A stretch of 64,000 nucleotides of DNA from Microcoleus sp. (GCA_042408215.1 JAYFMW010000007.1:96001-160000), one strand, 5' to 3'. Shown: positions 393 to 35,442, counted from the stretch's first letter. Notes: generated by a model not told the origin, from the letters alone. Program-made: numbers and translations.

Positions 393-490
393 AGCTGTTA
401 CGCATTTAAACCACTAACGAGGTCTGTAGGGTGCCACGGCTCGTAGGCGTAAGCCGGGGCGCAGCCATCGCTTACTATACAAGGGAAACG
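393..490 (+). repeat. 98-bp direct repeat, left copy (REP-like)
   Basis: agctgttacgcatttaaaccactaacg...caagggaaacg matches 35324-35421 with 3 mismatches. Confidence 0.9.
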
Positions 491-518
491 TTTGTTTTCC
501 GGTGTATTACCGCTCACA

Positions 519-551
519 AGCGAATTTCCATTTCAGAGTAGGAGTCAGGTC
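519..551 (-). pseudogene. Relic of a toxin-cassette homology arm
   Basis: Translates DLTPTLKWKFA versus DLTPTFQWQFA in the toxin; same junction with the PRP leader as at about 7091. Confidence 0.6.
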
Positions 552-558
552 AGAGGAT

Positions 559-2649: not shown

Positions 2650-3447
2650 ATGAACGCTGAAGAATTGCTCGAACGGTATACCAGTGGAGAAAGACACTTT
2701 GCTGGGGTTGACTTGAGCGGTGTCGATTTGAACAAGGCAAAGCTCATTGATATCAATCTCGCCAATGCTATTTTGATTAATGCTAACTTGACGAGTACTC
2801 ATTTGAGTGGTGCTGACTTGAGTGGTGCTAACTTGAGCGAGGCTAACTTGGATTGTATTCACTTGACCGAGGCTAACTTGACCGAGGCTAACTTGACCGA
2901 GGCTAACTTGGATGGCGCTGAGTTGATTAAGGCTAATTTTAGTGGTGCTAACTTGAAAGGAGCTTGGTTACAAGGGGCTGACTTGACGGGAGCTAATCTA
3001 AGTAATGCCTGCTTAGAAAACGCAACTTTGCACTATGCTGACGTGACTGATGCCAACCTCAGTGGAGCTAATTTGAAAAATGGTTTTTTATCTCGGCTCA
3101 ACTGCCAAAATACAAACCTCACTGGAGCCGACCTCAGCGATGCAGACCTCGGTGAAGCTGGTTTTTATGAAGCGACTCTAATTGGCGCGAATCTAAGTAA
3201 TACCAAGTTGCATCAAACAGGGTTTTGGAATTCTAACCTAAGTAAAGCTAACTTTAGTGGTGCGATTATGGATGAAACATCATTTGATGGTTCAAATCTG
3301 TGCCACGCTAATCTGATGGGAGCTAGACCCGATCCTGAATATGACGACTCAAATATAATCAATCTTTGCGGAAAATGGGAAGACGCTACCTTGTGCAATA
3401 CTATCATGCCAGATGGAACGATCCGAAATGATAATTGTACAGCTTGA
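2650..3447 (+). CDS. Pentapeptide repeat protein (subtype A), convergent with cassette 3641
   Basis: Pentapeptide repeats; 1023 bp after 1627, with a nearly identical N-terminal half. Confidence 0.93.
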   Translation: MNAEELLERYTSGERHFAGVDLSGVDLNKAKLIDINLANAILINANLTSTHLSGADLSGANLSEANLDCIHLTEANLTEANLTEANLDGAELIKANFSGANLKGAWLQGADLTGANLSNACLENATLHYADVTDANLSGANLKNGFLSRLNCQNTNLTGADLSDADLGEAGFYEATLIGANLSNTKLHQTGFWNSNLSKANFSGAIMDETSFDGSNLCHANLMGARPDPEYDDSNIINLCGKWEDATLCNTIMPDGTIRNDNCTA

Positions 3448-3640: not shown

Positions 3641-6600
3641 TTATTCCTCCTCAAGTTCCTCAGATTCACCCTCAAGCTCCTCAAGTTCCTCTTCCGGCTC
3701 TGTAGGGTCTTCGGGAAGTGGCGGTGGATTTGATTTCCAAGGAAGGCTAGCCCAAGTATCTCCAATAGATTCTTTACTGGGAAAGATGTATTTGATATCT
3801 TTGATATCTTGTTTTATTTCTTGAGGAAGAAGAGGGAATAGATCGTAGCCGATCTTGGTTTCTATTTCTTCAAGAGACCAGACAGGACGTTGAGTGAGAT
3901 CGTCAATCTTACTCCAATCCTTGTTTCTCCAGCCTTCGGCAATGTTACGGGGGTCTTGATTTGGATAATAAAAACCAACGGCATATACAGGAGTTGCGCT
4001 AGGGTCTGCACCCGGCTTATCCAAAACCACCATGACTTTCCATATATTTGCTGGAATTTGAATATCTTTACCGCCCGCATCCAAATTGTCCTTAATGCCA
4101 TCAATGCCATTAATGACATAGACTTCTTTACCGTTTAGCGCAAAATCTTGCCCGTAGTTTTCAAATTTCTCCCAAAAACTTACGCTATTATGTTTCGTCT
4201 GCTGTGGAACAATATTTGTTAGCAGATTGACAGCTTTACTGTCCTTGAGAGTAATACTGCGAGATGCCAGAGGTGTTTGATGACCTCCAACATAAGGAGC
4301 TCTATTTTTATAATCAGCGTTTGTCACTTGGTAAAAATCTGGTGGAAGGCTGCGATCGTTAGTGAAACCGCGCTTACTAGGATTTTGCTCTCCTGTCAAA
4401 TATATCGATGATTTATTGATCTGGAAACTCGCCCAGTTAGGTATATTTCCAGTACCGTTGTAAGACAGAGTATACTGCGGTTTTTCAAGCAGCAAGTTGT
4501 CTTTATAGAGATTCCCATCATAAGCAGCACCGCTATACCTTGCTGGACTGCTGCCATTCTTGGGTGTCGGTTCCCCAAATTTAAGAGAACTACTCTTGAA
4601 AAAGACATCATCTAAGTAAACCGCGTCGCTACCTTCCAATTCAAATTTGAGCGTCGCTGTTTTACCTCGGAACTTATCTAATTCTTTTTGTTGGGTTGAC
4701 CCTTGATAGAAAGTGTCAAATACATTAAAAGTTTCAAAACCTCTAGTCGCATATCCAAGTTTACGGGCAGCATCTTTTTCGAGATCGTTGTTGTAGAAAG
4801 AGTCTGATGTTCCTGTTAGAAAATTAGCTTCATCGAGAAGAATAATTTCAGTTATCTCTTCACCAGAAGCTACATCTTTTAGAGTAACTTTAAGCTTCCC
4901 ATGTCCATTAGCTGCTTCTTTGGGAACATGAATGTTGAACCGCAAAGACCCCCAATCTGGTACAACAAAGCGGTTGTGCGTCATGCTGTCACCACCCTTT
5001 AATTCCAGAGCATAGTTAGAGAAGTTAGGGTCATTACTATCAATACCCATCCTTTCTAGATAAGAGGTTCCAGGGATCTCATTGTTGTGTCGTAGGCTAC
5101 GTTGTTTGAGACTATCAATGGTACTCCAATTTACTAAATGCTTCGTGGGGTCTGCCAACTTTGATGTGGCACTATTGTGGAAAGACCACCCCGGAATTTC
5201 CTGAGAGATAGCATTCCGACCCAAATTTTCGGCAGCACTCTTATTAGGAATGTACTGGTCAAAATTCCCATTAAACAGAGTAGGAACCGCATAATCTCCC
5301 CGCATCCCAGCTTCAAGCGTATTATCAAAACTCACCGGAACGCGCCCAGTAGGGCTATACTGACGCTGCTCTTTACCTCCACCCAAAACAGAATAAAACC
5401 AACCCTCACCAACCCCTTCACCATTGCCATTATCATACCAAGGTTTAGCTGCCGGGAAATTCGGATCGAACATTTCGGGTAAACCCATTTTACCCAACAT
5501 ATCGTTAACTGCTTGAGGCTTCTCAGAAGCCTCCACATGAGGATACTGAAGTAAAACTTCCTCCAAGTCTAAATCAACTGTCCCCGCATACCATCCAAAT
5601 GCTCGCTTGTGCGTCCCTGCAATAACATCATCCTTAGTAAACCCAATCCGACTGTTTATCCGATCTGGTTCCTCCTCACGAGTACCGAGTAAAATCTCTC
5701 GGTCTGCCTTCCCTAAAGTAACACCCGACGCTTTAGGAAAATTCAGTCCAGCGGGTTTGGGATTCTTATCCAATTCCTCTTGTGGAAGTAGACCCAAAGC
5801 ACGACCATTAGGAGTAGCAGTACCACCATTCGGGTCAGCCACAGTTTGATAATAGTTATCAGCAAACGTAACATTATTCCAAACCTGAACCTTGGGTTCG
5901 TAGAAATCGCTGAAATTTGTTTCGATAAATTCCAGTAAATTTAATTTCAAACTAGGTTGGTAGAAATCGTGCGGGTCGATTGTTGTCATTTGGAGGTCTC
6001 GTGAGGCCATAGATTTGCCGCCCGCTTGGGGGAAAAAAGTCCCTAAACGCTGTACGATTTCGCTATTGACAACAGTACCCCGACTGAAACCCATGAAGTG
6101 CAGTGGCGAGTTGAACAAATCCCCCTGAGTGCGAATCAGGTTCCCTTGGCTGTCGTACAACCGCTTTAATTGATTGTTTTCATACTCTCCAACCTTACCC
6201 CCTAATGCCAGATCCAACTGCACCATAGAAGCAAACAAAGCATCAGCCGCGCCCTCAGAAAAGCCAACGTCAGGAATGACTGATTCTCTGTCCAACGACC
6301 ATTCATTCAGCAACACTAACGGTTTGTTATTGTTGAGGTATTTAATCTCCTTTCCATCTATAACCACACCTTTTTTTAACTTATTTGCCAAAGTTGATAA
6401 ATAAGCTGTTTCGCTGGTGTTAAGCCCGTCGGTCAACTCAGTTATTACCCGTCCCTGTAAATCTATAGGAATCCAGTTGCCTGTAGGCTTGTCGTAACGC
6501 ATAATTAACCCGCTGTTTTCCGGTGTATTGCCGCTAACAGTGGCAATTTTATTGGTCATTTGGAAAAAGGAATCAGGAATCCCAGACTGCACCGGCAAAA

Positions 6601-7091
6601 GTGTAAAACCATGAGTCAACACGCTCACGCTGCTGAAAGGACTGTTGCTAACAGGAAGTAAAGTTTTAAACTGCCCCAAATCTTTGGTCACAGCGCCGCT
6701 CTTACTCACAGCTTCAACAGCAAAATTGTAGTTCTGGCCCGCAGTAAGACTCCTCGGTAGCGTGAAGTTAGTGCTAGTATTTGCGGGGTCATTTAAAGGT
6801 TGGTCAAGAGGCGTAATCCCGTCGTGCCCGTACCACTTGCCAGTATCTTTCTTCCAAGTCGCCGTCAGAATCCGGTTGGGATTGAAGTCGTCATAACCGT
6901 TCCAAGGCTTGGAAAGAAGTTGACGCTTTTGTGTTTCCGAGAAGCCGGGAAGGAGTGCCGAATCTGATAAATCGACGACTTTATCCCAGGGCAATAAACC
7001 CTTGCCTTGCTCGAACGTACTGACAAAAAGATTGACCTCTTTCACATTCTCCCAACCAGGAGCAAACTGCCATTGAAAAGTAGGAGTCAGG
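3641..7091 (-). CDS. Orphan toxin C-terminal cassette: FN3-like, GxSxG hydrolase, NucA-like nuclease (VGGH) and acidic tail
   Basis: ORF 3641-7045; homology to the full-length gene continues upstream of the GTG to DLTPTFQW (about 7091); YVGGHQTP...TNIVPQ...N..FWEKFE. Confidence 0.85.
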
Positions 7092-7145
7092 TCAGAGGAT
7101 GATTGTACTATAATTCAGAAGTTAAACTAATTGAATAGATAATTT

Positions 7146-7964
7146 ATGAACGCTGAAGAATTGCTCCGACGGTATGCTGCTGGTGAGAGGAATTTTGCTG
7201 GGGTTGATTTGAGCGGTGTCGATTTGAACAAGGCAAATCTCCTTGAGATCAATCTCGCCAATGCCAATCTGATTAATGCTAACTTGAGTTATGCTGACTT
7301 GAGTGGTGCTGACTTGAGCAATGCTAACTCGATCAATGCTAACTTGCGTTGTATTGACTTGATTAATGCTAACTTGAGTAATGCTAACTTGAGCGAGGCT
7401 AACTTGGATGGCGCTCAGTTGATTAATGCTAATTTTAGTGGTGCTAACTTGAAAGGAGCTTGGTTGGAAGGGGCTGACTTGACTGGAGCTAATTTCAGTA
7501 ATGCCTGCTTAGAAAAAGCCAACTTAGGTCATACTGACTTAACTGATGCCAACCTCAGTGGAGTCAATTTAAAAAGTGGTTTTTTATCAGGAGTAAACTG
7601 TGAAAATACTAACCTCAACGGAGCCGATATCAGCGATGGAGATATCACTGAAGCCTACTTTGAAAAAGCGACTCTAATTGGCACGAATCTAAGTAATACC
7701 AAGTTGCATCAAACTGGGTTTTGGAATTCTGACCTAACTGGAGCTAATTTCAGCGGTGCAGTTCTCGATGAAACTTCGTTTGAAGGAGCCAATCTCAGCA
7801 ATGCTAATCTAAAGGGGGCTCAACCAGAACCTACTCTCCTCACACAGAGGATTAGGTTGATGGGGAAAGGGTTTGAAGAAGCTATCTTATGTAAGACTAT
7901 CATGCCTGATGGCAGTATCCGCAATGATAATTGTATGCCTGAACAATCCAATGAGCTAATATAA
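7146..7964 (+). CDS. Pentapeptide repeat protein (subtype A), convergent with cassette 8067
   Basis: Pentapeptide repeats; C-terminus like the 604 paralog (QPEP...RLMGKGFEEAILCKTIMPDG). Confidence 0.93.
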   Translation: MNAEELLRRYAAGERNFAGVDLSGVDLNKANLLEINLANANLINANLSYADLSGADLSNANSINANLRCIDLINANLSNANLSEANLDGAQLINANFSGANLKGAWLEGADLTGANFSNACLEKANLGHTDLTDANLSGVNLKSGFLSGVNCENTNLNGADISDGDITEAYFEKATLIGTNLSNTKLHQTGFWNSDLTGANFSGAVLDETSFEGANLSNANLKGAQPEPTLLTQRIRLMGKGFEEAILCKTIMPDGSIRNDNCMPEQSNELI

Positions 7965-7999
7965 AAATTTTCAGATCCAGACAATACAAAGTGGGGATA

Positions 8000-8033
8000 A
8001 AAAATCAGGCTTCTTGGAGAAGCCTGGTTTTTT
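8000..8033. terminator. Probable bidirectional terminator
   Basis: aaaaatcaggcttct-tgg-agaagcctggttttt hairpin with A and T tracts, between convergent genes. Confidence 0.65.
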
Positions 8034-8066
8034 GCTACATTACACTCATCGGAAAACCTCTATCAA

Positions 8067-11000
8067 TTATTCACTCTCAAGTTCCTCAGATTCCTCTTCT
8101 GGATCTGTAGGGTCTTCTGGAGGTGGCGGTGGATTTGATTTCCAAGGAAGGCTATCCCAAGTATCTCCAATAGATTTTTGCTTTGGAAAAATGTACTTGA
8201 TATCTTTGATATCTTTTTTGATTTCTTGAGGAAGAAGAGGGAATAGATCGTAGCCGATCTCGTTTTCTATTTCTTCCAAAGACCAGACAGGACGTTGAGT
8301 ACGATCGTCTATCTTACTCCAATCCTTATTTCTCCACTTTGTGGCAATCTTACCAGGGTCTTCATTTGGATAATAAAAACCAACGGCATAAACGGGAGTT
8401 GTGGTAGGATCTGCACCTGGTTTATCCAAAACCAGCATGACTTTCCACAAATTAGCAGGAATTTGAATAGTTTTACCATCGGCATCAAATCTATCCTTGA
8501 TTCCATGAATGCCATTAATGACATAAACTTCTTTACCTTCCTTGGCAAAATCTTGCCCGTAGTTTTCAAATTTCTCCCACAGTGGGCTGTTATTTTTAAT
8601 CTGTTGTGGAACGATATTAGTCATCAGATTGACAAATCTCTTGTCTTTTATCGTAATGCTGCGAGCTGCTAGAGGTGTTTGATGACCTTGAACGTAACCC
8701 AAGGGGACTGCGCTATCGTAATCATTACTACTTACCCGATTAAAATTGGGTGGAAGGCTTTTGTCTATAATAAAAGATCGCTCAGTAGGATTAGGCTCAC
8801 CTGGCAAATATATCGATGATTTATCGATCTGGAAACTAGCCCAGTTAGGTATGTTTCCAGTACCGTTGTAAGACAGAGTATACTGCGGTTTTTCAAGCAG
8901 CAAGTTGTCTTTATAGAGATTCCCATCATAAGCAGCACCGCTATACCTTGCTGGACTGCTGCCATTCTTGGGTGTCGGTTCCCCAAATTTAAGAGAACTA
9001 CTCTTGAAAAAGACATCATCTAAGTAAACCGCGTCGCTACCTTCCAATTCAAATTTGAGCGTCGCTGTTTTACCTCGGAACTTATCTAATTCTTTTTGTT
9101 GGGTTGACCCTTGATAGAAAGTGTCAAATACATTAAAAGTTTCAAAACCTCTAGTCGCATATCCAAGTTTACGGGCAGCATCTTTTTCGAGATCGTTGTT
9201 GTAGAAAGAGTCTGATGTTCCTGTTAGAAAATTAGCTTCATCGAGAAGAATAATTTCAGTTATCTCTTCACCAGAAGCTACATCTTTTAGAGTAACTTTA
9301 AGCTTCCCATGTCCATTAGCTGCTTCTTTGGGAACATGAATGTTGAACCGCAAAGACCCCCAATCTGGTACAACAAAGCGGTTGTGCGTCATGCTGTCAC
9401 CACCCTTTAATTCCAGAGCATAGTTAGAGAAGTTAGGGTCATTACTATCAATACCCATCCTTTCTAGATAAGAGGTTCCAGGGATCTCATTGTTGTGTCG
9501 TAGGCTACGTTGTTTGAGACTATCAATGGTACTCCAATTTACTAAATGCTTCGTGGGGTCTGCCAACTTTGATGTGGCACTATTGTGGAAAGACCACCCC
9601 GGAATTTCCTGAGAGATAGCATTCCGACCCAAATTTTCGGCAGCACTCTTATTAGGAATGTACTGGTCAAAATTCCCATTAAACAGAGTAGGAACCGCAT
9701 AATCTCCCCGCATCCCAGCTTCAAGCGTATTATCAAAACTCACCGGAACGCGCCCAGTAGGGCTATACTGACGTTGCTCTTTACCACCACCCAAAACAGA
9801 ATAAAACCAACCCTCACCAACCCCTTCACCATTGCCATTATCATACCAAGGTTTAGCAGCCGGGAAATTCGGATCGAACAATTCGGGTAAACCCATTTTA
9901 CCCAACATATCGTTAACTGCTTGAGGCTTCTCAGAAGCCTCCACATGAGGATACTGAAGTAAAACTTCCTCCAGGTCTAAATCAACCGTCCCAGCATACC
10001 ATCCAAATGCTCGCTTGTGCGTCCCTGCAATACTATCATCTTTCGTAAACCCAATCCGACTATTTATCCGATCTGGTTCCCCCTGACGAGTACCGAGTAA
10101 AATCTCTCGGTCTGCTTGCCCTAAAGTAACACCATTAACTGTCGGAAAATTCAGTCCCGCAGGTTTAGGATTCTTATCCAATTCCTCTTGTGGAAGTTGA
10201 CCCAAAGCACGACCGTTGGGAGTAGCAGTCAAACCATTAGGATTAGCCACAGTTTGATAATAGTTATCAGCAAACGTAACATTATTCCAAACCTGAACCT
10301 TTGGTTCGTAGAAATCGCTAAAATTTGTGCTGATAAAACCAGGTAATTGTAAATTCAAACTAGGTTGGTAGAAATCGTGCGGGTCGATTGTTGTCATCTG
10401 GAGGTCTCGGTTAGCCATAGATGTTCCACCAGCTTGGGGGAAGAAAGTTCCTAAACGCTGTACGATTTCGCTATTGACAACAGTACCCCGACTGAAACCC
10501 ATGAAGTGCATGGGCGAATTGAACAAATCCCCCTGCTGGCGAATCAGCTTCCCTTGGCTGTCGTACAACCGCTTTAATTGATTACCTTCATATTCTCCAA
10601 CCTTACCCCCTAATGCCAGATCCAATTGCACCATTGAGGCAAACAAAGCATCAGCAGCACCTTCGGAGAAGCCAACATCGGGAATAACTGACTCCCTATC
10701 CAGCGACCATTCATTCAGCAACACTAACGGTTTGTTCTTGTTGAGGTATTTAATCTCCTTTCCATCTATAACTACCCCGGCTTTTAACTTATTTGCCAAA
10801 GTTGATAAATAAGCTGTTTCGCTGGTGTTAAGCCCGTCGGTCAACTCAGTTATCACCCGTCCCTGTAAATCTATAGGAATCCAGTTACCTGTAGGCTTGT
10901 CGTAGCGCATAATTAACCCGCTGTTTTCAGGTGTGTTGCCGCTAACAGTGGCAATTTTATTTGCCATTTGGAAAAAGGAATCAGGAATCCCAGACTGCAC

Positions 11001-11660: not shown

Positions 11661-11724
11661 GTTAAATATCCTAACCTTCTTTTACTCCTTTTTATAATAC
11701 CTAGAGAATTGTAGTATAATTTAT

Positions 11725-11836
11725 AAACATGAATGTTGAACTTCAAAATACCGGATTTAGGCACAACAAACTGATTGTGTGTAATGCTGTTATCAGATGT
11801 TAATCTCAAAGCATAGTTAGGTTTAGCTGGATCGTA
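11725..11836 (-). pseudogene. Degenerate toxin-cassette fragment
   Basis: YDPAKPNYALRLTSDNSITHNQFVVPKSGILKFNIHV versus YDPAQPNYALKLTSDDSITHNRFVVPDWGTLRFNLHV in cassette 13722. Confidence 0.8.
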
Positions 11837-11858
11837 GTAGAGATTTAGGAGGAGAGTT

Positions 11859-24483: not shown

Positions 24484-24614
24484 CGCTGATGATGCGGGTG
24501 ATTGAGAAATGCTTGTAATTGCAGTAGTATTTGAATAAAAATAGTTTTAAACATACAAATACTCTTACCTGGGATTCTGGTTATTATTGTAAATAAATTC
24601 TAGGAGACAAAGTT

Positions 24615-25337: not shown

Positions 25338-25351
25338 ATAGTTAGAGTGAT

Positions 25352-25383
25352 AGAGGGTCAATAAATGTTGGATTTGACCCTCT
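25352..25383. terminator. Possible hairpin terminator between a convergent pair
   Basis: agagggtcaa...ttgaccctct inverted repeat. Confidence 0.5.
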
Positions 25384-25418
25384 GACTGACCTGGGGAATA
25401 AATCTCTAAATCATTCGT

Positions 25419-28400
25419 TTATGGCAAGCGCTCAAAGATTGTATTCTTAATCCGTTCTTTGCCTAAAGACTCTGGCAGATTAGACAAGAATTGGTATTGG
25501 GGAGATATACCTGGCAAATCTCCATTGAGCAAGTTTTCCAAGTTGTGGATCGATTGTTTTTGATACCCACTTCTTGCGTCGTTACCCAAATAGATACCAT
25601 AGTGAGCATACTGAGGGAGTTCGGTGTTTTTGTCTTTAGTCATAACTACTTTCCACAGACCGACTGGGAATTGGATGAGGGGATCTAAGTTTGAATTCTG
25701 CGAGATCCCCGTATAGGGACGCTGGCTGGGATTGTCGTAGTACCCATATCCCCCGGCAAACATATAGGTTTCTAGACCGCTTGAGTTAGGCGAATTAATT
25801 ACACCTCTGATTTGGCCTTCAATAGTCTCCCAAATTCCTCGATTGTTACTGCTCTCTTGAGGAAGTAAGTTCGTCGTTAAGAAAGTAGCATAAAGATCCT
25901 TAGCTGTCCTGCTTCTATCAGCAGCCGGAGCCATGTGACCCCGATCTATTCCGAGGATGGGAATGTAGTTCCCGTTGTCATCAATTTCAAAATCTACGTA
26001 CCCATCGGGATACCGATCGCCTTTTCGATTGTCTACTACTTGCCCATCTTTATCTTTGAGATAAAGCGCATCATAGTCACTATCTTTTACCGAATACCAG
26101 CTAGTTTTCACTAATTCCGGGTCTTGAGCAAAGCCCAAGAACGGCGGTCTTTTAATATCTCCTAACCACGTTTTATCTAATTTCCAACCAACCCAATTAA
26201 CGGTATTTTTGCTGCGGTTATAAGAAAGAGTGTATTGAGGCTTTTCAATCAAAAAGTTATTTTCAAACTGAAAATCGTTTCTGGCTTCAGTAGGATTCCC
26301 CCACTTCAGAACTTCACTCTTGAAGAATGCGTTGTCTATATACACAGGCTCCTCACCTTGCAATTCAAACGTGAGTTTGGCAACTTTACCTCTCAGGCTG
26401 GGAGGTACATCAATATGGAAAGTTTCAAAGCCAGATGAGCCGTAACCAATGGTATCCTTGTCATAGCCGTAATTGCCAGGTATATTAACCTCATATGTTT
26501 TGCGACTCCCATCTGGCTCTCGCTCTCTCAAGCTAGTTCTTGTGGCTTTCTCCGTTGTGGGTTCAGATTCTTCTAGCGAAATTTCTCCTATTTTTACATT
26601 TTCCGGCGAACCTACTTCCTCCAGATACACCTTGAGTCTTCCACCTTTGTTCAAAGATGACTCTGGAACGTGAATATCTAAACGCAATACTCCCCAATCC
26701 GGTACAACAAAGCGATTGTGCGTAATGCTCTCGCCCGCACCTAATTTTAGAGCATAATTGGGTTGATAATTTTGAGCTTGAGAGTTAATACCTAATAAGC
26801 TCAAGTAATTGGAAAAATTGGGAGATTGTTGAGCTATCTCATTCCACTCTACAAGGTTGTTGATAGGTGACACCAAAGTTGATGTGGCACTATTATGAAA
26901 AGACCACCCAGGAATTTCCTTAGAGATAGTATTCCGACCAAATTCTTCAGCCCCACTCTTATTCGGAATAAACTGGTCAAAATTGCCATTAAACAGAGTA
27001 GGAACCGCATAATCTCCCCGCATCCCAGCAGAAAGAGTATTATCAAAACTCACCGGAACGCGCCCAACAGAACTCAACGTCCGCTGCTCTTTACCTCCAC
27101 CCAAAACAGAATAAAACCAACCCTCACCAACCCCTTCACCATTGCCATTATCATACCAAGGTTTAGCAGCCGGGAAATTCGGATCGAACATTTCGGGTAA
27201 ACCCATTTTACCCAACATATCGTTAACTGCTTGAGGATTCTCAGAAGCCTCCACATGAGGATACTGAAGTTTTACTTCCTCCAGGTCTAAATCAACCGTC
27301 CCAGCATACCATCCAAATGCTCGCTTGTGCGTCCCTCCAATAACATCATCTTTTGTAAACCCAATCCGACTGTTTTCACGACCTGGTTCCCCCTGACGAG
27401 TACCGAGTAAAATCTCTCGGTCTGCTTGCCCTAAAGGATCGCCCTTAACTGTAGGAAAATTCAGTCCAGCGGGTTTCGGATTCTTATTCAACTCCTCTTG
27501 TGGAAGTAGACCCAAAGAACGACCATTAGGAGTAGCAGTCAAACCATTAGGATTAGCCACAGTCTGGTAATAGTTATCAGCAAAAGTCACATTATTCCAA
27601 ACCTGAACTTTTGGTTCGTAGAAATCGCTGAAATTTGTGCTGATAAAACCAGGTAATTGTAAATTCAAACTAGGTTGGTAGAAATCATGCGGGTCGATTG
27701 TTGTCATCTGGAGGTCTCGGTTAGCCATAGATGTTCCACCAGCTTGGGGGAAGAAAGTTCCTAAACGCTGTACGATTTCGCTATTGACAACAGTACCCCG
27801 ACTGAAACCCATGAAGTGCAGTGGCGAGTTGAACAAATTCCCCTGCTGGCGAATCAGCTTCCCTTGGCTATCGTACAACCGCTTTAATTGATTGCCTTCA
27901 TACTCTCCAACGCCACCCCCCAACGCCAGATCCAATTGCACCATTGAGGCAAACAAAGCATCAGCAGCGCCTTCGGAGAAGCCAACATCGGGAATAACTG
28001 ATTCTCTATCCAGCGACCACTCTGGCAGTAACACTAACGATTTATTCTGGTTAACATAGTTAGCCTGAATATTGTTAGTTAAAGTCCGAAAATAGTTAGT
28101 ATCTGTTGGTTGCAGTCCACCCGTTAAAGTTGTTAAAACTCCTCCATTTTTATCAATAGGAATCCAAGACCCGGTGGGTTTTTCGTAGCGCAAAATTAAC
28201 CCATCATTACCAGTTTTTGCAATACTGTCAGCTACCTCGTAGAAGGAGTCAGGAATTCCCCCTTGGCCGGGCAAAAGTGTAAAACCATGAGTCAACACGC
28301 TCACGCTGCTGAAAGGACTGTTGCTAACAGGAAGTAAAGTTTTAAACTGCCCCAAATCTTTGGTCACAGCGCCGCTATTGCTCACAGCTTCAACAGCAAA

Positions 28401-31400
28401 ATTGTAGTTCTGCCCCGCAGTAAGACTCCTCGGTAGCGTGAAGTTAGTGCTAGTATTTGCGGGGTCATTTAAAGGTTGATTAAGAGGTGTAATCCCGTCA
28501 TGGCCGTACCACTTGCCAGTATCTTTCTTCCAAGTCGCTGTCAGAATTCGGTTGGGATTGAAATCGTCATAACCGTTCCAAGGCTTGGAAAGAAGTTGAC
28601 GCTTTTGTGTTTCCGAGAATCCGGGAAGGAGTGCCGAATCCGATAAATTGACAACCTTATCCCAGGGCAATAAACCCTCCCCTTTATCGAAGGTACTGAC
28701 AAAAAGATTAACCTCTTTCACATCCTCCCAACCCGGAGCAAACTGCCATTGAAAAGTCGGAGTCAGGTCATTTGTAGTTGCACCAGGCCCCTTCAAATTC
28801 AGCCAGTCAGTCGGTGCAGAACTCAAATCCCGTAAATTGCCTCCAGTACCGACTGGTGCGCGTGTTGTCCCCGGCAGCACCCCATAAGTAAACTGATTAG
28901 CAGGTCGGTTCTCCTTAGTAATCCCATAATCAGCAGCAATACTAATAGCCGGATTTATATCATCAATAGGAACCCTTGTGAAATCAGCAGCAGTCACAGA
29001 CCTCGCCGTAGTAGCATTGAAGAAAGGAGACTTAACACCCCTGTCAAGACTATCAATTTTGAATTGACCAGGATTGTCCAGAGTTTTAATCATTTCCTCA
29101 ACATCGAAAGCATAAACGCTCCCAGCACTACTAGGAGCTGGGTAAGAAGAAAATAGGGATTTATTGTCATTCGATAGTACCAAATCGTTCGTCAGTCCCC
29201 CAGGAATCGGTCTGGTAGCAGCTACTAATTGAGGATTTGGCCCCAAGGGGTCTTTGATAATACCAATGTTGCTTCCAGAGCGCGGATCTGGCTCGAGAGC
29301 GACATTATCTCTATTGTTGCGACCTGCAACAAACGCATACCGCCCGTCACGCATTACCGTTACAGAAACTCCCTCGTTGACATCAAAGTAATCGTTAGCA
29401 GAACCCAGCGATAAATCTATGTAGCGGTTAGTGGCTGTAAAGTTAAGGGGGTCATCCGATGCGATCTCAAGCACCCCGTAGCCCTTACCGTCCGTAGTGG
29501 TGTTCCCACTAGTGAAAATCATCGCTTTGGGATTTGAGGTAGCCGTCAGCCCTGTAACTCCCAGCGGCCCTGTAGGTCCCAGCGGTCCTGCAACGGCTCC
29601 AATTTGCTCGTGCCATTTGCGAGGGTTAGAGTTAGGTTGGTTTGGTCGGTCTTTAGGGTCAATGTTGACCGCGTAAATGTAATTGTCGGACGCGGTAGCA
29701 AAAAGCTTGTGCCCGTCACTGCTAATTGCCAGATTACGCAGTTTGGTGGTGTTTGAGCCGAGGTTTATGGTTTTGATGACCTGATGGTACGTTGTTGAGA
29801 AGGGGTCGATGTCGAGGACGTAGATGTTGGGCCGATCGCGATCGGCAATGTAAGCATAATTATCCTTGGGGTCGATCGCGATCGCCCCCGGTAGAGCACC
29901 GGCAGGCAATGCAATGGGGTTGACACCTAGAATATCCGGCTGAGTATCTACCTGCCGCAAAACCATCGGATCTACCAAAACTACTTGACCTGATTGCCTT
30001 AAGGTCACGTAAGCCCGAGTGCCGTCGCTAGTTGTCGCGGTCGCCTCCGCCCAGCCACCCACAGGAATGCTTGACAGTAGCAAGTCACTGCTGCGAGCAG
30101 CTTCCACCACAGATTTGGGGTCCGTACCGTCCAAAACGGCCACCCGGTTAGCGCCGCCCAAGGCTGCAAAGACGTACTCGGCCCCCTCGGGCAACTGCAT
30201 GGAATTGCTGCTGTACTCCATTGCTTCGTACACCGGCGCCGTGCCGTTTTGTTCTACCAACTGATTTTGTTTCCGAGTCACAACGATGTGGGATGCCCCC
30301 AACGGCACGGTGTCGGGTACTCTCACCGCTACTTCATACTGATTGCCCCCGAGATTCCGGCTGCGGTTGGGCAATACCGTTCCCTCATACACGCGATTCC
30401 CAACCTGAAATTTCACAACCAAGTCCTCAAACCGACTGCCTTTGGAGTCGCTGGCATTATTGACTAAAATGTTGCCCCCCGTCAGAAATAAGAGGGGCTC
30501 ATTGTTCTCAAATTGCTGGTTGTTCTCATCCTTGAATTTCAGTTCAGCCTTTTGGAGGACAGGAGGTGTTGTGGGGTCAGAGGTAGTTGGGGCTGGCATA
30601 TTCAAAGCTGCCTTAAATGTGGCAGTACCGTCGTCGTTTCGCTGCACGCCCACCTCTGTGACTACGGGAAGTCCCACCTTGGGGATTGCTACTACCTGTA
30701 CTGAAGATATGTCGCGAGTTACTGTAAAGGCCGGGGTGGTAACGAATTTGTCCGGGTCGATTAACTGACCGATGTTTCCCAGGGGGTCAATGATGCCAAA
30801 AAATGCTAGGGGGAAGTTGTAGTTGAGGGTAAGCTGACCTTTGACTAAGGTGGCGCTGCCTGTCGGACTGGCGTAAACTACTGCGTATTCGCCCGGTCTG
30901 ACTACACCTGGATAGGGAGGAGACTGGGTGCGAATCTTGCCGTCATCTCCGACTATGCCTGATTCTTCTTGCAGCCAAATCGGATTCCAAGTGCCGGTTG
31001 CGTCAGGAATTGCTCCTTTTCGGAGGAAGTATGCTACAGTTCCTGGTGCTAATCCGGCTGGTGCTGGTATTGCTAACTGGGCGGGTATATTCAGGGAGTT
31101 ATCGCTAAAGTTTAAGTTGAAGGCTCCTGCAAATTCAAATCCCGGTGGTAGTGGTAGGGACAAGTTTTGTTGGTTGACTGGGGCAATGCTGACGGTTGCA
31201 TTCTGTTTGAGAGCGCCCGGAGGTATCATTACTGCTAGGGTTCCGTCGCTTGAGTTGATGATGCCACCGTCGGTTCCCAAGGCAGTCGTGCCGATTTTCG
31301 GTACTTCGACTCGAACTGGAATGGTGGCGGATGCGGTTCCGTGAATGGCTGTGACGGTGGCATCGCCAATGCCGACTGCTGTAATGGTGCCGTCGGGACT

Positions 31401-34400
31401 GACGTTGAGGATGTTGCTGTTGTTGCTAAAGTAGCGCGTACCTGTGCTGGCTGCGGTTAGGTTGGCTTCGGTGAAGTTGGAGTTTAAGCCGAGAGAGAGT
31501 TTCCGGGTTGCACCGGGTGTCAGGGAGACGGCATCTGGGTATGGGTCTAGTCCGTACATTTCGGCTAGTATCTGATGCAGTTGAGCGTCTGTTGTGGGTG
31601 CTGGCATTGTCCCAATTCGGATTGGGGTGACTGCTTGCAGGTTGTTGCGACTCGCGCTCAAAACTGAAGTGCCGTTGACCAAACCTGTCACTTTCCCCGT
31701 TGGATCAATTGGTGCTACTTCTGGATTGAAAGAAGTGTAAGTTAAATAAGAATCTGGCAGCACTACACCTTTTTGGTCGGCAAAATCTCCGAGCACAACT
31801 AATTCCGTATTTTCTCCTGCATTGAGGCTCGGATTTCGCTTCACAAAATCTAGATTCAGCAGCGGAACATCGCTGACGTTGACTGTCACCCGCGCGGGAG
31901 TTGAACTCCCAAAAGCGTCGCTGGCAAGGAAATCAAAGCTGGCAATTCCAGAGAAACCGGTTGCTGGTTTAAACGATGCTTTGTTAGTTAAGGGATTGAA
32001 AATTACCGTGCCGTTTACTGGACCCTGGACGCTAATTGTCAGAGGGTCGCCTTCTACATCTGTGGCAAGATTGTCTAATGAAATAGTTGTCTCTAATTCT
32101 GTGTAAGTCCGAGCGTTTGTCGGTAAAACAACGGGCGGATTGTTGTCAGAATTCGGGGGATTGGCTTCGGCGAGCAATTGTTGTCCTAGGGGAGTATTGC
32201 GCCACTCTCTGTCAGGATTGATGACTGTATCTAGCAGCGGTGCGTTTCCTGTTGCGCCACTAATTTTAAAGATTAGGTCATTGTAGTCGCTGTCAGAGTT
32301 AGGAGGCGACATATCTTCCAGGGCAAAGGTGTTGCCGCTGCCGGTAATGTCGGCTATTTGTAGCAGATGAGCGGTATCGTTGGGATTGGCTGTGGCGATA
32401 CTGAATAAGGGGCGGTTTTCGGGGAACAAATTTCCCGAATATGAGGATTGGAAGGATGATTGTATTGTAGCGTTGGGGACTAACATGACGGCAAAGGTGT
32501 CGCCTGGTAGCATGGAGAAAGTTTTGATACCCTGATATTCGCCGCTGCCCCAATCCCCGTCGAAGGGCATCGCACCGGTGAATTTTGCTCCTTCTGTACT
32601 GTCGCTGATGACAATATGTCCGTCGGTGGAATTGCTTAAAACTCTACGGGATGCTTCGGCGATAAATTCTGGAGTTCCGGGTGTGAATGCGGACATTCCC
32701 GCAAGGCTGAAAATGCCGACTTCGCCTTGAAAGTAGCCGCCGTCAAACTGATAGTCAAATTTGACTTGTCCTTGGTCATCTACAAGGAAAGTGCCACTGG
32801 GTGAATTGGCTGCTGCTGTTATTGAGAGATTTGTTGGGGAATTGGTATTGGTTTGGAAGTCGCCTGTACGCTGTGTTGAATTGGGTTGAGTGTCTGCAAT
32901 ATTGTCTGAAAATTGAGCAGAGTTTTCGGTCGCTGATGGCTGCAAACCGCTTGTTATATCTGCGGATTTTGGCGCAATTTCGGTATCGGAATACGCGGGT
33001 AGGACGGCGACAGTTTCTGTGGGATTTGAATGGCTATTATGATTTTTTGAATTGGGTTCTGGTTCGAGAGAATTAACAGCAACTGGCAGGGTTTTCTCGG
33101 TTTCTAATTCGGCTGCTGTGAAGGAAACAACGATGTCCCGTTCGATTGTATCAGCAGTGAATTCTGCTGGTTTTAGCAAATCGGTTTTTGTTGGCAATTG
33201 TTCGGTTTCAAGTTCTCCTGTTATTTCAGCGACCGGGATGTCCAGAACCACCGTGCCAGAATTGATTTCTGCGGTAATAATCGACTCGTTTTTTGTGGGC
33301 AATTCTTCGGCTGTGGTAGAAACATTGGAGTGGGTTTCTTTTGGTGATTGTTCGCCCACATTAGAGCTGAGTAAGTCTGTTTTTGCAGGAGAATTTTCTG
33401 CAAGTGGAGCGATAATTGACTCTGTTTCTGCGGGAGGTTTAGAAATGCTTGCAGTTACAGTTGTGTCGGTTTTGATTAATTCAGCATCTGCTGATAGACT
33501 GACAATAGATTCTGTTTTAACTGGCTGTTTAATTTCCGAAAGTGAGTCAGTATTGTTCGGAGTTTTTTCTGGGGTTTTAACTGCTGCTGTTGCTGTCGTC
33601 ACCGCTACATTTTCACTGGCTGCTGTTTTTGGTGTTGCAGCAGGTTCGGTTTTTAATGGGTCTATTTTTCCTGAATCATTCGGTTTGTCAGTTAAAGATT
33701 GAGTAGCGGTTTGTACTGGATTTTTTAAATCTGTTGATTTGACTTCTTCTCTGATATTAACGTCAGGTGAAACTGGGTTAGATGTGGCCAGAATTAATGG
33801 GGCTGTTGCGGGCTGTGTTGTTGGTTGTTGAGAATTTGAAGTGGGTTTTTCGGTCGCTATTGCATCGACTGTTGGCGATTGTTTTTCGGAATCTATCTTG
33901 TCATCAGTTTTGGTAACTGGCGACTGTTTGTCTGTAGAGGTTTTATCAGTCGAGGGTATGTTTGGGCTAGCTGCAACTGTTTGGGTTGAATTTGTTACTG
34001 CAATTTTATCGGATTCTTCTGATGAATTTGTACTGCGCTCTGGTATTATGGTTGATACAGTTGCAGGTGCTGTTTTGTTCGGTTCTAATTTATCAGTCGG
34101 TGATACAGTTGCGGGTGCTGTTTTATTTGGTTCTAATTTATCAGTCGGTGATACAGTTACAGGTACTGTTTTATTTGGTTCTAATTTATCAGTCGGTGAT
34201 ACAGTTACAGGTACTGTTTTATTTGGTTCTAATTTATCAGTCGGTGATACAGTTACAGGTACTGTTTTATTTGGTTCTAGTTTATCAGTCGGTGATACAG
34301 TTGCGGGTACTGTTTTGTTCGGTTCTAGTTTATCAGTCGGTGATACAGTTGCGGGTACTGTTTTGTTCGGTTCTAGTTTATCAGTCGGTAATACAGTTGC

Positions 34401-35003
34401 AGGTGCTGTTTTGTTCGGTTCTAGTTTATCAGTCGGTAATACAGTTGCAGGTGCTGTTTTGTTGGGTTCTGACTCGCTTTTTAGTGTAGCCTCTGAGGAT
34501 AAGGGTGTTTTTTTATCTTCGGGTTTTGAACTCGTTTCAGCGGTTGCGGGTAATGGTGTTTTGGGAGCAGCTTTTTCGCTTGTTGTGGATGTAGTTACAA
34601 CGGGTGAGATTATTCGATTCGGGTTGGTCAGGGGGTCTCCTAAATCCGAGTCGAGTTTACCAATTAGGGGGTCAATTTCAGAAGTTGTTGCATCCCTGGA
34701 GTAGCTGTTAGTTTTGGGATCGCTGGTTTGAGCAGAAGGTATGCTGTTAAAAGCGGAGGCTTTATTAATAATCAAAGCATCAGCCTTTGCTGCACTAAAT
34801 TCGTCTTTGGGCTGCGAAGCGGTTTCTATTAAGTTAGGTTGTTGGGAGTTTTCGGATTCGCCCGGAGTTTGATATAAGAAAGGTTTTGAGGTTTTAATTC
34901 CCGGCAGGAGCGCGGGCTTTGTCGGGGCTAGTCCGGGAATTAAGGATTCCAGTTCTTCTATTAAAGGTTCTCCAATCGGGTCTGTTAAAGGCACTCTTGG
35001 CAC
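25419..35003 (-). CDS. Giant multidomain putative polymorphic toxin (3194 aa) with a C-terminal DNA/RNA non-specific (NucA-like) endonuclease
   Basis: S/T/P-rich N-terminus; DUF4114-like (FALED...DSDYNDLIF); cadherin/Ig-like; ZU5-like (GGII...IPPGAL); YVTN-like propeller; THGF...GFSRG...IDP...H; IDRGHMAPAADR...ATFLTTNLLPQ...NNRGIW. GTG start is uncertain. Confidence 0.9.
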   Translation of the reverse strand: MPRVPLTDPIGEPLIEELESLIPGLAPTKPALLPGIKTSKPFLYQTPGESENSQQPNLIETASQPKDEFSAAKADALIINKASAFNSIPSAQTSDPKTNSYSRDATTSEIDPLIGKLDSDLGDPLTNPNRIISPVVTTSTTSEKAAPKTPLPATAETSSKPEDKKTPLSSEATLKSESEPNKTAPATVLPTDKLEPNKTAPATVLPTDKLEPNKTVPATVSPTDKLEPNKTVPATVSPTDKLEPNKTVPVTVSPTDKLEPNKTVPVTVSPTDKLEPNKTVPVTVSPTDKLEPNKTAPATVSPTDKLEPNKTAPATVSTIIPERSTNSSEESDKIAVTNSTQTVAASPNIPSTDKTSTDKQSPVTKTDDKIDSEKQSPTVDAIATEKPTSNSQQPTTQPATAPLILATSNPVSPDVNIREEVKSTDLKNPVQTATQSLTDKPNDSGKIDPLKTEPAATPKTAASENVAVTTATAAVKTPEKTPNNTDSLSEIKQPVKTESIVSLSADAELIKTDTTVTASISKPPAETESIIAPLAENSPAKTDLLSSNVGEQSPKETHSNVSTTAEELPTKNESIITAEINSGTVVLDIPVAEITGELETEQLPTKTDLLKPAEFTADTIERDIVVSFTAAELETEKTLPVAVNSLEPEPNSKNHNSHSNPTETVAVLPAYSDTEIAPKSADITSGLQPSATENSAQFSDNIADTQPNSTQRTGDFQTNTNSPTNLSITAAANSPSGTFLVDDQGQVKFDYQFDGGYFQGEVGIFSLAGMSAFTPGTPEFIAEASRRVLSNSTDGHIVISDSTEGAKFTGAMPFDGDWGSGEYQGIKTFSMLPGDTFAVMLVPNATIQSSFQSSYSGNLFPENRPLFSIATANPNDTAHLLQIADITGSGNTFALEDMSPPNSDSDYNDLIFKISGATGNAPLLDTVINPDREWRNTPLGQQLLAEANPPNSDNNPPVVLPTNARTYTELETTISLDNLATDVEGDPLTISVQGPVNGTVIFNPLTNKASFKPATGFSGIASFDFLASDAFGSSTPARVTVNVSDVPLLNLDFVKRNPSLNAGENTELVVLGDFADQKGVVLPDSYLTYTSFNPEVAPIDPTGKVTGLVNGTSVLSASRNNLQAVTPIRIGTMPAPTTDAQLHQILAEMYGLDPYPDAVSLTPGATRKLSLGLNSNFTEANLTAASTGTRYFSNNSNILNVSPDGTITAVGIGDATVTAIHGTASATIPVRVEVPKIGTTALGTDGGIINSSDGTLAVMIPPGALKQNATVSIAPVNQQNLSLPLPPGFEFAGAFNLNFSDNSLNIPAQLAIPAPAGLAPGTVAYFLRKGAIPDATGTWNPIWLQEESGIVGDDGKIRTQSPPYPGVVRPGEYAVVYASPTGSATLVKGQLTLNYNFPLAFFGIIDPLGNIGQLIDPDKFVTTPAFTVTRDISSVQVVAIPKVGLPVVTEVGVQRNDDGTATFKAALNMPAPTTSDPTTPPVLQKAELKFKDENNQQFENNEPLLFLTGGNILVNNASDSKGSRFEDLVVKFQVGNRVYEGTVLPNRSRNLGGNQYEVAVRVPDTVPLGASHIVVTRKQNQLVEQNGTAPVYEAMEYSSNSMQLPEGAEYVFAALGGANRVAVLDGTDPKSVVEAARSSDLLLSSIPVGGWAEATATTSDGTRAYVTLRQSGQVVLVDPMVLRQVDTQPDILGVNPIALPAGALPGAIAIDPKDNYAYIADRDRPNIYVLDIDPFSTTYHQVIKTINLGSNTTKLRNLAISSDGHKLFATASDNYIYAVNIDPKDRPNQPNSNPRKWHEQIGAVAGPLGPTGPLGVTGLTATSNPKAMIFTSGNTTTDGKGYGVLEIASDDPLNFTATNRYIDLSLGSANDYFDVNEGVSVTVMRDGRYAFVAGRNNRDNVALEPDPRSGSNIGIIKDPLGPNPQLVAATRPIPGGLTNDLVLSNDNKSLFSSYPAPSSAGSVYAFDVEEMIKTLDNPGQFKIDSLDRGVKSPFFNATTARSVTAADFTRVPIDDINPAISIAADYGITKENRPANQFTYGVLPGTTRAPVGTGGNLRDLSSAPTDWLNLKGPGATTNDLTPTFQWQFAPGWEDVKEVNLFVSTFDKGEGLLPWDKVVNLSDSALLPGFSETQKRQLLSKPWNGYDDFNPNRILTATWKKDTGKWYGHDGITPLNQPLNDPANTSTNFTLPRSLTAGQNYNFAVEAVSNSGAVTKDLGQFKTLLPVSNSPFSSVSVLTHGFTLLPGQGGIPDSFYEVADSIAKTGNDGLILRYEKPTGSWIPIDKNGGVLTTLTGGLQPTDTNYFRTLTNNIQANYVNQNKSLVLLPEWSLDRESVIPDVGFSEGAADALFASMVQLDLALGGGVGEYEGNQLKRLYDSQGKLIRQQGNLFNSPLHFMGFSRGTVVNSEIVQRLGTFFPQAGGTSMANRDLQMTTIDPHDFYQPSLNLQLPGFISTNFSDFYEPKVQVWNNVTFADNYYQTVANPNGLTATPNGRSLGLLPQEELNKNPKPAGLNFPTVKGDPLGQADREILLGTRQGEPGRENSRIGFTKDDVIGGTHKRAFGWYAGTVDLDLEEVKLQYPHVEASENPQAVNDMLGKMGLPEMFDPNFPAAKPWYDNGNGEGVGEGWFYSVLGGGKEQRTLSSVGRVPVSFDNTLSAGMRGDYAVPTLFNGNFDQFIPNKSGAEEFGRNTISKEIPGWSFHNSATSTLVSPINNLVEWNEIAQQSPNFSNYLSLLGINSQAQNYQPNYALKLGAGESITHNRFVVPDWGVLRLDIHVPESSLNKGGRLKVYLEEVGSPENVKIGEISLEESEPTTEKATRTSLREREPDGSRKTYEVNIPGNYGYDKDTIGYGSSGFETFHIDVPPSLRGKVAKLTFELQGEEPVYIDNAFFKSEVLKWGNPTEARNDFQFENNFLIEKPQYTLSYNRSKNTVNWVGWKLDKTWLGDIKRPPFLGFAQDPELVKTSWYSVKDSDYDALYLKDKDGQVVDNRKGDRYPDGYVDFEIDDNGNYIPILGIDRGHMAPAADRSRTAKDLYATFLTTNLLPQESSNNRGIWETIEGQIRGVINSPNSSGLETYMFAGGYGYYDNPSQRPYTGISQNSNLDPLIQFPVGLWKVVMTKDKNTELPQYAHYGIYLGNDARSGYQKQSIHNLENLLNGDLPGISPQYQFLSNLPESLGKERIKNTIFERLP
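34053..34469 (-). repeat. In-frame 48-bp tandem repeat (TDKLEPNKT[AV]P[AV]TV[SL]P), 8 full copies plus 1 partial
   Basis: Seen directly in the DNA (period 48) and in the translation. Confidence 0.95.
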
Positions 35004-35323
35004 TCCTGATTTGAGGGTTAATTTATTTTTAATTCATTATCTAGCGGTTAATAATTTTTATTATAGGTTGAATTCGATTTTAAACAAATTAGTGAAAGTA
35101 CAGAATTTTTGAGTTTTTTAGACTGTTGCTAGTCAGTTAAATCTATGTATATTTACTGAGAGTTCTTTAATTTCTGCTAAATCTTTATGAAAATAACTGT
35201 TTTCACGTAGGAAAATACTTCAATCATGTTGGAAAATACTTAAATTAACTCATCCACCGCCACGTCGCTTCCCGATCGCCCGTTTCCTCTAGCTCTGGAA
35301 TTCCTTCGATGTCGAAATGAGTT

Positions 35324-35442
35324 AGCTGTTACGCATTTAAACCACTAACGAAGTCTGTAGGGTGCCACGGGTCGTAGGCGTAAGCCGGGGCGCAGCCATC
35401 GCTTATTATACAAGGGAAACGCTGGGGGCTGACGCACCCTAC
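35324..35442 (+). repeat. 98-bp direct repeat, right copy, completed by a REP-like GTAGGGTGC...GCACCCTAC palindrome
   Basis: 35324-35421 matches 393-490; followed by ctgggggctgacgcaccctac. Confidence 0.88.

Follow-up and report, generated by a model that had tools for sequence, protein, structure and literature searches.

A candidate polymorphic nuclease toxin with pentapeptide-repeat partner proteins in the filamentous cyanobacterium Microcoleus

Introduction

What is the function of a locus in which one giant gene ending in a nuclease domain is followed by four truncated copies with different nuclease ends, with ten genes for pentapeptide-repeat proteins (PRPs) facing them from the opposite strand? 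The question is raised by a 64,000-nt stretch of the Microcoleus sp. genome GCA_042408215.1, hereafter the window. An initial annotation, made from the sequence alone, had taken this locus for an undescribed polymorphic nuclease-toxin system with PRP partners. The variability of the nuclease ends (tips), their exchange and their specific linkage to PRP genes support that reading. We propose that the locus probably encodes a polymorphic toxin with exchangeable tips of NucA type: a cognate PRP that mimics DNA would neutralise the tip, and recombination with downstream cassettes would replace it.

Results

One full-length gene, four truncated cassettes and ten PRP genes

In the ORF list, five minus-strand open reading frames (ORFs), N1 to N5, span 3641-35003, and ten plus-strand PRP ORFs are interspersed between and behind them. 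Each of the five nuclease ORFs is separated from a convergent PRP gene by only 82-194 nt. The initial description of one gene of 3194 amino acids (aa), four co-oriented copies of its 3' end and ten opposite-strand PRP genes is thus borne out by the ORF and Pfam calls. All ten plus-strand ORFs match Pfam Pentapeptide (PF00805), with E values from 6e-23 to 1e-69. From N1 onward, the genes are:

25419-35003, minus strand: N1, full-length, 3194 aa, intact ORF with a GTG start
24615-25337, plus strand: PRP10, convergent with the N1 tip after an 82-nt gap, 240 aa, isoelectric point (pI) 6.6, PF00805 E 1.6e-34
17485-24360, minus strand: N2, truncated cassette, 2291 aa, RKGH tip; DNA homology extends to 24483
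15398-15985, 16060-16539 and 16822-17310, plus strand: PRP7, PRP8 and PRP9 (PF00805), behind the N2 tip
13722-15287, minus strand: N3, truncated cassette, 521 aa, DRGH tip; DNA homology extends to 15331
11859-12800 and 12936-13631, plus strand: PRP5 and PRP6 (PF00805), behind the N3 tip
8067-11612, minus strand: N4, truncated cassette, 1181 aa, VQGH tip; DNA homology extends to 11660
7146-7964, plus strand: PRP4 (PF00805), convergent with the N4 tip, 71-80% identical to PRP1-3
3641-7045, minus strand: N5, truncated cassette, 1134 aa, VGGH tip; DNA homology extends to 7094
604-1401, 1627-2427 and 2650-3447, plus strand: PRP1, PRP2 and PRP3 (PF00805), a tandem triplet behind the N5 tip

The truncated copies lack the first 942 to about 2640 residues of N1. 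Their DNA homology to a longer copy (N1 for N2 and N4, N4 and N1 for N5, N2 for N3) begins abruptly at the positions listed, 123 (N2), 44 (N3), 48 (N4) and 49 nt (N5) upstream of the first possible TTG or GTG start. The copies had been called start-less; they are indeed 5'-truncated, but each has a possible non-ATG start and N1 itself begins with GTG, and "truncated" is the safer word. N2 begins at N1 residue 943, which is the end of an N-terminal module that N1 has in common with an Rhs protein of the same genome (see below). A full-length gene followed by such cassettes, with stretches in common up to 99-100% identical, is the layout of the CdiA, Rhs and MafB polymorphic toxins; that comparison, drawn in the initial annotation, is supported by the four truncated cassettes and by their variable tips.

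The tips are NucA-family nucleases of four deep clades

All five ORFs end in Pfam Endonuclease_NS (PF01223), with E values from 1e-28 to 2e-34 (the latter for N3) and scores of 99-120 bits against a cut-off of 23 bits. The closest relative of known structure to the N1 tip is the Anabaena nuclease NucA (1zm8 and 2o3b, E 4e-25), in agreement with the earlier assignment of the tips to the NucA/Serratia nuclease family. The DRGH motif is complete in N1 and N3 and altered in N2 (RKGH), N4 (VQGH) and N5 (VGGH). The initial annotation had asked whether tips might be catalytically dead, yet the Gly-His pair and the Asn of the beta-beta-alpha-Me site are invariant in all five. Among 47 related tips there is no variation at the G, H, K-D, N and W positions, and conservation reaches at least 90% at R, Q, N and E; the His that we take to be catalytic is invariant, and the Asn that presumably binds the metal is at least 90% conserved.

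In a tree of 83 rows the window tips fall into four deep clades, and other species hold the nearest relatives of every tip. A separate clade of 13 rows (starred in the tree) unites the small stand-alone nucleases. The same scaffold also carries an unrelated toxin domain, ART-PolyVal, as described below; variable C-terminal toxins on a constant part are thus represented by four nuclease clades and by ART-PolyVal. Tips among homologs are not invariant, the alternative that the initial annotation had named as damaging to its proposal.

Tips move between the main gene and the orphan cassettes

Exchange is seen by comparison with a 14,355-nt contig of Tychonema sp. LEGE 06208. The long gene of this contig joins an N2-like scaffold to a tip that is 100% identical over 272 aa to that of orphan N3, and the truncated copy behind the long gene carries an N1-type tip (92%); what is an orphan tip in Microcoleus is the main tip in Tychonema, and the N1 type is the orphan there, as the proposed tip swapping would have it. 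Collinearity of the contig extends over window 9563-15331 (95.6% across 5777 nt) and 18707-24483 (88%); relative to the window, the contig is without the N2 tip, PRP9, PRP8 and PRP7. The window contains a 259-nt repeat (15073-15331 and 18926-19184, 94% identical), and the Tychonema arrangement is the expected product of recombination in this repeat. Public metagenome runs contain the same joint twice, once in a contig from a DNA library and once in a contig from an RNA library. In both, the loose end at 18926 corresponds exactly to window 15043-15072, and the RNA-library contig matches on to 19464. N5-type and N2-type tips occur on other scaffolds too. Tips appear to have been exchanged between the main gene and the orphans, as judged from comparison between species and not from population events that were observed.

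The copies within the window retain long stretches on which recombination could act. Scaffold stretches among them are 93-100% identical. Identity between N1 and N2 is 93-99% at the aa level over N1 943-1500, then 45-95% in blocks, and drops to 27-36% in the tip. In N4 and N5 the 300 aa that precede the tip are the same (100%), and the tips themselves agree at 73-85%. The synonymous divergence (dS) of N4 and N5 is 0.22, 0.01 and 0.48 in adjacent segments, the middle value belonging to the 300 aa before the tip, and this pattern indicates gene conversion just ahead of the tip. Since the ratio of non-synonymous to synonymous divergence (dN/dS) between N4 and N5 is 0.17-0.29, their differences accumulated under purifying selection, and the truncated copies stay open.

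The arrangement recurs beyond this one assembly. When 16000-26400 is divided into 30 bins, contigs from two DNA metagenome runs cover every one of them (30 of 30) and also span the joint that connects PRP10 to the 5' end of N2. Several independently assembled genomes of other species, one of them in just 6 contigs, contain comparable arrays in which long genes are accompanied by truncated copies and PRPs. These recurrences answer the concern, voiced at the outset, that the cassettes might be assembly artefacts.

RNA-library contigs (X14 and X15) cover 11 and 10 of the 30 bins, mostly at 95-99% identity. Their source is related organisms, the data consist of contigs only and DNA may have been carried over, and we rejected them as proof of expression. 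We likewise rejected as rearrangements a contig joint from 21053 to 16032 and loose ends at 24483, which reflect paralogous copies and a leader that PRP5 and PRP8 have in common.

PRP genes follow the nuclease tip

A hidden Markov model (HMM) built from the window PRPs finds 66 PRP ORFs in the 7.36 Mb of the genome. Each of the seven nuclease tips in the genome is accompanied by a PRP no more than 200 nt from its 3' end, an adjacency that excludes chance given so few PRP ORFs in a genome of this size. Fourteen of the 66 PRP ORFs lie behind or beside nuclease tips.

The same linkage holds in other strains, where the initial annotation had proposed to look for it. We compared 78 related loci, 66 with fused or long tips (49 of them assessable) and 12 encoding small complete nucleases. 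A PRP lies at most 1 kb downstream in 44 of the 49 assessable fused tips, against about 1% expected, and this extends over many cyanobacterial genera. The nearest PRP is convergent in 38 of the 49, and at least one is convergent in 42. Every one of the 47 partner proteins in our alignment matches PF00805. Small complete nucleases, in contrast, are without a PRP in 10 of 12 cases; downstream of these, a convergent gene for the nuclease inhibitor NuiA (PF07924, E 5e-29 to 8e-50) was found in 6 of the 9 loci examined. As the small nucleases carry convergent NuiA there, the PRP holds the place and orientation of the inhibitor gene beside classical nucA. PF07924 was not matched in the Microcoleus genome, a negative of little weight since the profile matched none of 14 control genomes either.

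Tips and partners also vary together. Tip identity and partner identity are correlated (Mantel Spearman 0.43, with none of 2000 permutations as high), and for N1, N2 and N3 the nearest external relative of the tip carries, as its first partner, the nearest relative of the PRP found here (92.5% identity for PRP10, 80% for PRP9 and 86% for PRP6). The partner changes with the kind of tip, as ART tips are followed by small Cys-rich ORFs instead of PRPs. The PRPs follow the nuclease tip, and not the scaffold or the N-terminal module.

Properties of the PRPs

The window PRPs have no signal peptide, have the N-terminal cap ELLxRYAAGERDF in common and are preceded by their own upstream regions. PRP1 to PRP3, which are 74-91% identical to one another, have a common upstream region. 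Nine of the ten are strongly acidic (pI 4.1-4.7). The median net charge per 100 aa is -7.4 for the 14 tip-linked PRPs of the genome versus -1.5 for the other 52, a comparison in which paralogs are not independent. PRP10 scores far below the NCBIfam equivalog cut-offs for Qnr (49 bits versus 240) and MfpA (48 versus 360).

PRP5 consists of two PRP units fused in tandem; both have an ELLxRYAxxERxF cap, and they are most similar to PRP7 and PRP8 respectively. PRP8 and PRP7 (15398-16539) have their counterparts in Microcoleus anatoxicus PTRS2 (L055, L056), where the second and third PRPs after an N3-type tip match them at 98.7% and 95% identity. Since the same pair stands behind N2 here, the order of cassettes has been reshuffled.

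Anatomy of the full-length protein

N1 begins with the N-terminal module and continues with Ig-like domains and a region resembling a beta-propeller; a lipase-like alpha/beta-hydrolase and a beta-sandwich then lead up to the nuclease tip. Pfam identifies DUF4114, Big_9/cadherin-like, Big_2 and Endonuclease_NS domains. The parts that can be placed on the window are:

32124-35003, minus strand: N-terminal module, N1 residues 1 to about 960, with the head MPLTDPIGEPLIE
32256-32513, minus strand: DUF4114, inside the N-terminal module
27072-28325, minus strand: lipase-like alpha/beta-hydrolase, N1 residues about 2227-2644, motif GFSRG
26319-27014, minus strand: pre-tip beta-sandwich, N1 residues about 2664-2895, ending in VY[IL]DNxFFKS
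25422-26309, minus strand: N1 nuclease tip, NucA/Serratia family, beta-beta-alpha-Me fold, DRGH; PF01223 E 1.2e-28

Homologs of N1 keep its head. After it comes a spacer rich in Pro and Thr, whose DNA contains a 48-nt repeat in 8.7 copies (34053-34470). The junction motif VY[IL]DNxFFKS is conserved ahead of both nuclease and ART tips, and divergence of the tips begins after it.

A structure model of N1 2200-2895, built from a 61-sequence alignment (pLDDT 78.5, pTM 0.85), comprises two domains. The modelled hydrolase resembles phospholipase A1 (4qnn; VIA-align Z 13.1), lipoprotein lipase (13.0) and Tle4, a type VI secretion system (T6SS) lipase (9.6), backing a weak earlier lead to Abhydrolase_8 from the ESM Atlas (score 0.78). 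Because its nucleophile column holds Ser in 37 of 61 homologs and Gly in the other 24, the lipase-like domain may be structural in many members. The modelled sandwich matches CBM, MAM, reelin and Cry-domain sandwiches with Z values of 10-11 (Foldseek, VIA-align). A model of N1 1113-2205 from 13 sequences (pLDDT 49.8, pTM 0.44) was too poor for a structure search.

Other toxins on the same parts

The scaffold had been described as neither Rhs, FHA nor LXG. This stands in that Pfam (E <= 0.01) finds no RHS, TPS, FHA or LXG domain in N1, but the first ~960 residues are common to an Rhs toxin: they align at 45-49% identity with residues 6-1409 of a 7069-aa protein of the same genome (G000:C30:1443-22652, where G000 denotes this genome; L133, L134). 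The C30 protein consists of the N-terminal module, two DUF4114 domains, Ig-like domains, DUF6531, many RHS repeats, a DPSGL core and a NucA/NucB-type DNase tip; by Pfam, N1 has neither the RHS/YD repeats nor the DPxGL core end of this paralog. The gene that follows the C30 protein encodes 388 aa and is not a PRP by the HMM. Contigs C13 and C15 also carry copies of the N-terminus common to N1 and the C30 protein, cut off by the contig ends.

A second paralog, of 1676 aa (G000:C8:163000-176000; L024), agrees with N1 in its body of propeller, lipase-like domain and sandwich and in the junction (TVYLDDISFGKK), and ends in an ART-PolyVal tip (PF18760, E 8e-11). The ART tip recurs in three other species (L016, L022, L130) and is followed by one to three co-oriented Cys-rich ORFs of about 73 aa, which in one of these species (L130) alternate with ART-tip fragments. 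Further downstream lie a nuclease-tip fragment and two PRPs.

Distribution and neighbouring genes

Queried with 1701 aa of scaffold, 21 of 36 other species of the genus and none of 24 genomes from other families of the order gave matches; a 296-aa pre-tip piece matched in 33 of 79 genus genomes, this one included. The C-terminal ~700 aa together with the nuclease are found in many other cyanobacterial genera. Public annotation calls the homologs only "DNA/RNA non-specific endonuclease", several of them "partial". In another species (L014:2423-4246, G025:C4) a group II intron ORF with reverse transcriptase, maturase and HNH parts lies inside the nuclease tip of the full-length gene and splits it into two ORFs.

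Directly upstream of N1, on the minus strand of window 35472-39209, lie a gene for a HerA-like ATPase (HAS barrel and DUF87, 578 aa) and then one for a 479-aa PRP; RibBA follows beyond both, at 39256-41046. We rejected the HerA-like gene as a component of the system, as it is not conserved beside homologs in other species. A scan of 7000-26000 gave no promoter or terminator signal (29 promoter-like and 20 terminator-like sites versus 31.9 and 18.5 in shuffles). The sole clear terminator-like site among the gaps between tips and PRPs is a 9-bp GC-rich hairpin followed by a T run on the minus strand at 8006-8026, in the convergent gap between N4 and PRP4.

Discussion

How might these parts work together? 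We hypothesize that N1 is a giant exported protein of a Microcoleus-type filamentous cyanobacterium, that its N-terminal module of ~960 residues, also present in an Rhs toxin, presumably directs export or surface display, and that its last ~300 residues would act as a non-specific nuclease of the NucA family, killing a recipient cell by degrading its nucleic acids. N2 to N5, which are without the N-terminal module, would be silent or weakly expressed spare cassettes, and homologous recombination in the near-identical scaffold stretches would move another tip onto the expressed gene. The one to three PRPs encoded behind every tip, on the opposite strand and each with its own upstream region, would remain in the cytoplasm. 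There these mostly acidic beta-helical proteins would mimic DNA and occupy the substrate groove of the nuclease, protecting the producer and kin that carry the same cassette. According to the available text of PMC4890671, intracellular NucA kills cyanobacteria unless NuiA is present, and a NucA-type tip would for that reason need an inhibitor.

Several observations weigh against this proposal. N1 has no classical or otherwise recognisable signal peptide at its N-terminus, and next to N1 and its homologs we identified neither a conserved secretion gene nor delivery machinery. The partner of the sole full-length gene, PRP10, is not acidic (net charge 0, pI 6.6). N2, N4 and N5 are without the Asp or Arg of the DRGH motif. 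The PRP genes stand on the strand opposite to the tips, unlike classical co-oriented immunity genes. Five of the 49 assessable fused tips are without a PRP within 1 kb, namely L063, where a transposase has inserted, L077, and three non-cyanobacterial loci, and because related genomes are not independent, the counts and p-values make the case look stronger than it is. A fusion of nuclease and PRP was not seen among the 120 listed N3 homologs, proteins of 286-912 aa only, none of which matches PF00805. Finally, 13 of the 78 loci, all in other genera, encode large PKD/cadherin proteins with the nuclease in an internal position, which fits a constant secreted enzyme better than a swappable toxin. 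In seven of these 13 (L039, L041, L042, L043, L058, L059, L065), from Calothrix, Chamaesiphon, Rivularia, Dolichospermum, Desertifilum and a Pseudanabaenaceae genome, Big_9/cadherin domains and 2-8 PKD repeats follow the block of lipase-like domain, sandwich and nuclease, and the internal-nuclease proteins also contain DUF4114 in Desertifilum and Calx-beta in Dolichospermum. This context supports an extracellular location, and it also feeds the most serious alternative.

That alternative, which we consider unlikely but deserving of weight, is that N1 is a secreted or surface nuclease serving nutrition (phosphate or DNA) or the remodelling of the mat matrix, with no antagonism involved. The PRPs would then protect the cell only before export, as NuiA does, and the truncated copies would be leftovers of duplication. 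The extracellular-type domains, the large PKD/cadherin/Calx-beta relatives in other genera and the apparent want of delivery machinery all suit such an enzyme, and the NucA family is said to serve nutrition in the text available for PMC4890671. A nutritional enzyme, however, would hardly account for four deep tip clades shuffled between scaffolds and species, nor for an unrelated ART toxin that uses this scaffold and has partner genes and orphan fragments of its own. The N-terminal module held in common with an Rhs toxin, and truncated copies that remain open with the low dN/dS given above, likewise point away from it.

Less probable again, in our judgement, is that the PRPs are not inhibitors of the nuclease, being instead adaptors, chaperones or regulators of the toxin, a role proposed for PRPs that accompany the T6SS, or protectors of a DNA enzyme such as gyrase in the manner of Qnr and McbG. 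PRPs are established gyrase protectors, and PRP10 is not acidic. A reference cited in the available text of PMC10933656 describes PRPs as T6SS accessory proteins. Such roles sit poorly with partners that track the type of tip and neither the scaffold nor the N-terminal module, that occupy the place and orientation of nuiA, and that co-vary and travel with the tip; moreover, several PRPs are placed behind single tips and behind orphans in the manner of immunity genes.

We regard it as very improbable that the giant protein is retained in the cell as a suicide or anti-phage system, its nuclease freed from PRP inhibition upon infection or stress. N1's want of a signal peptide and the HerA-like ATPase gene just upstream would agree with this, and NucA-centred conflict systems have been described in multicellular bacteria, as far as the available portion of PMC7159879 goes. 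On the other side, it is in extracellular proteins that Ig, cadherin, DUF4114, PKD and Calx-beta domains typically occur, the HerA gene does not keep its place next to homologs, and the N-terminal module is that of an Rhs toxin. An assembly artefact of collapsed or chimeric repeats, conceivable in a region with repeats 86-92% identical, is scarcely credible given the comparable arrays in independent assemblies and the two metagenome runs that cover the region and its N2/PRP10 junction.

How new would a polymorphic toxin paired with PRPs be? As set out in the accessible text of PMC3482391, the Rhs, CdiA and MafB systems resemble the locus: their N-terminal and central portions are constant, the C-terminal toxin that follows a conserved junction varies, 5'-truncated orphan cassettes lie downstream, and each tip has a tip-specific partner beside it. 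Unlike them, the body of N1 is without RHS, FHA or LXG parts, and its partner genes are convergent instead of co-oriented. Tox-NucA is a listed toxin domain in the same paper (Zhang et al. 2012, PMC3482391), with Imm36, SUKH and NTF2 as its immunity proteins; the domain is listed there neither for cyanobacteria nor with a PRP as immunity protein, and the text available does not contain the word "pentapeptide". The NucA-NuiA pair of Anabaena sp. PCC 7120 is the other close comparison, with the same nuclease family and a convergent gene for a cytoplasmic partner just behind. There, however, the nuclease is a secreted enzyme of ~270 aa, not the tip of a 3194-aa protein, all ten neighbours here are PRPs and not NuiA, and the NuiA-linked nucleases form a clade apart from the window tips.

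McbG, AlbG, Qnr and MfpA are PRP beta-helices that mimic DNA and target DNA gyrase, and some of them confer self-immunity in toxin-producer loci. The window PRPs belong to the same repeat class, but the target we propose is a nuclease and not gyrase. Two literature cases come nearer to that proposal, as far as their available texts describe them. Jablonska et al. 2017 (PMC5714182) report YjbI-like PRP genes adjoining GH-E His-Me Rhs nucleases, with no immunity role assigned in the text available, and a preprint (bioRxiv 10.64898/2026.07.13.738213) likens the putative T6SS immunity protein Tsi6a to a PRP-annotated antitoxin, by prediction only. Both place a PRP gene beside a toxin of His-Me finger nuclease type, as here, but in proteobacteria or actinobacteria with a T6SS or a type VII secretion system, and the toxin family of Tsi6a differs from ours. 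Our literature search, which did not cover supplements, found no description of the scaffold or of PRPs as inhibitors of NucA-type nucleases, in line with the initial annotation, which knew of no described system combining this scaffold with PRP partners.

Cyanobacteria encode dozens of PRPs per genome, and to our knowledge almost none of these has an assigned function. That 14 of 66 PRP ORFs in one genome stand beside nuclease tips leads to the hypothesis that such PRPs are cognate nuclease inhibitors, which can be checked in vitro. More tentatively, and with chances that we would put slightly below even, PRPs may be a general and unrecognised class of DNA-mimic immunity proteins against NucA-type toxins, which would explain part of the cyanobacterial PRP expansions, and the N-terminal module may represent a new route of export or delivery for antagonism or kin recognition between filaments. 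For inhibitor design, a DNA-mimicking protein able to block non-specific nucleases could provide a model. For the organisms themselves, the proposed system would extend polymorphic toxins to filamentous cyanobacteria, with a new scaffold and a candidate immunity fold, and would offer a handle on competition and recognition among the Microcoleus strains that share mats and soil crusts.

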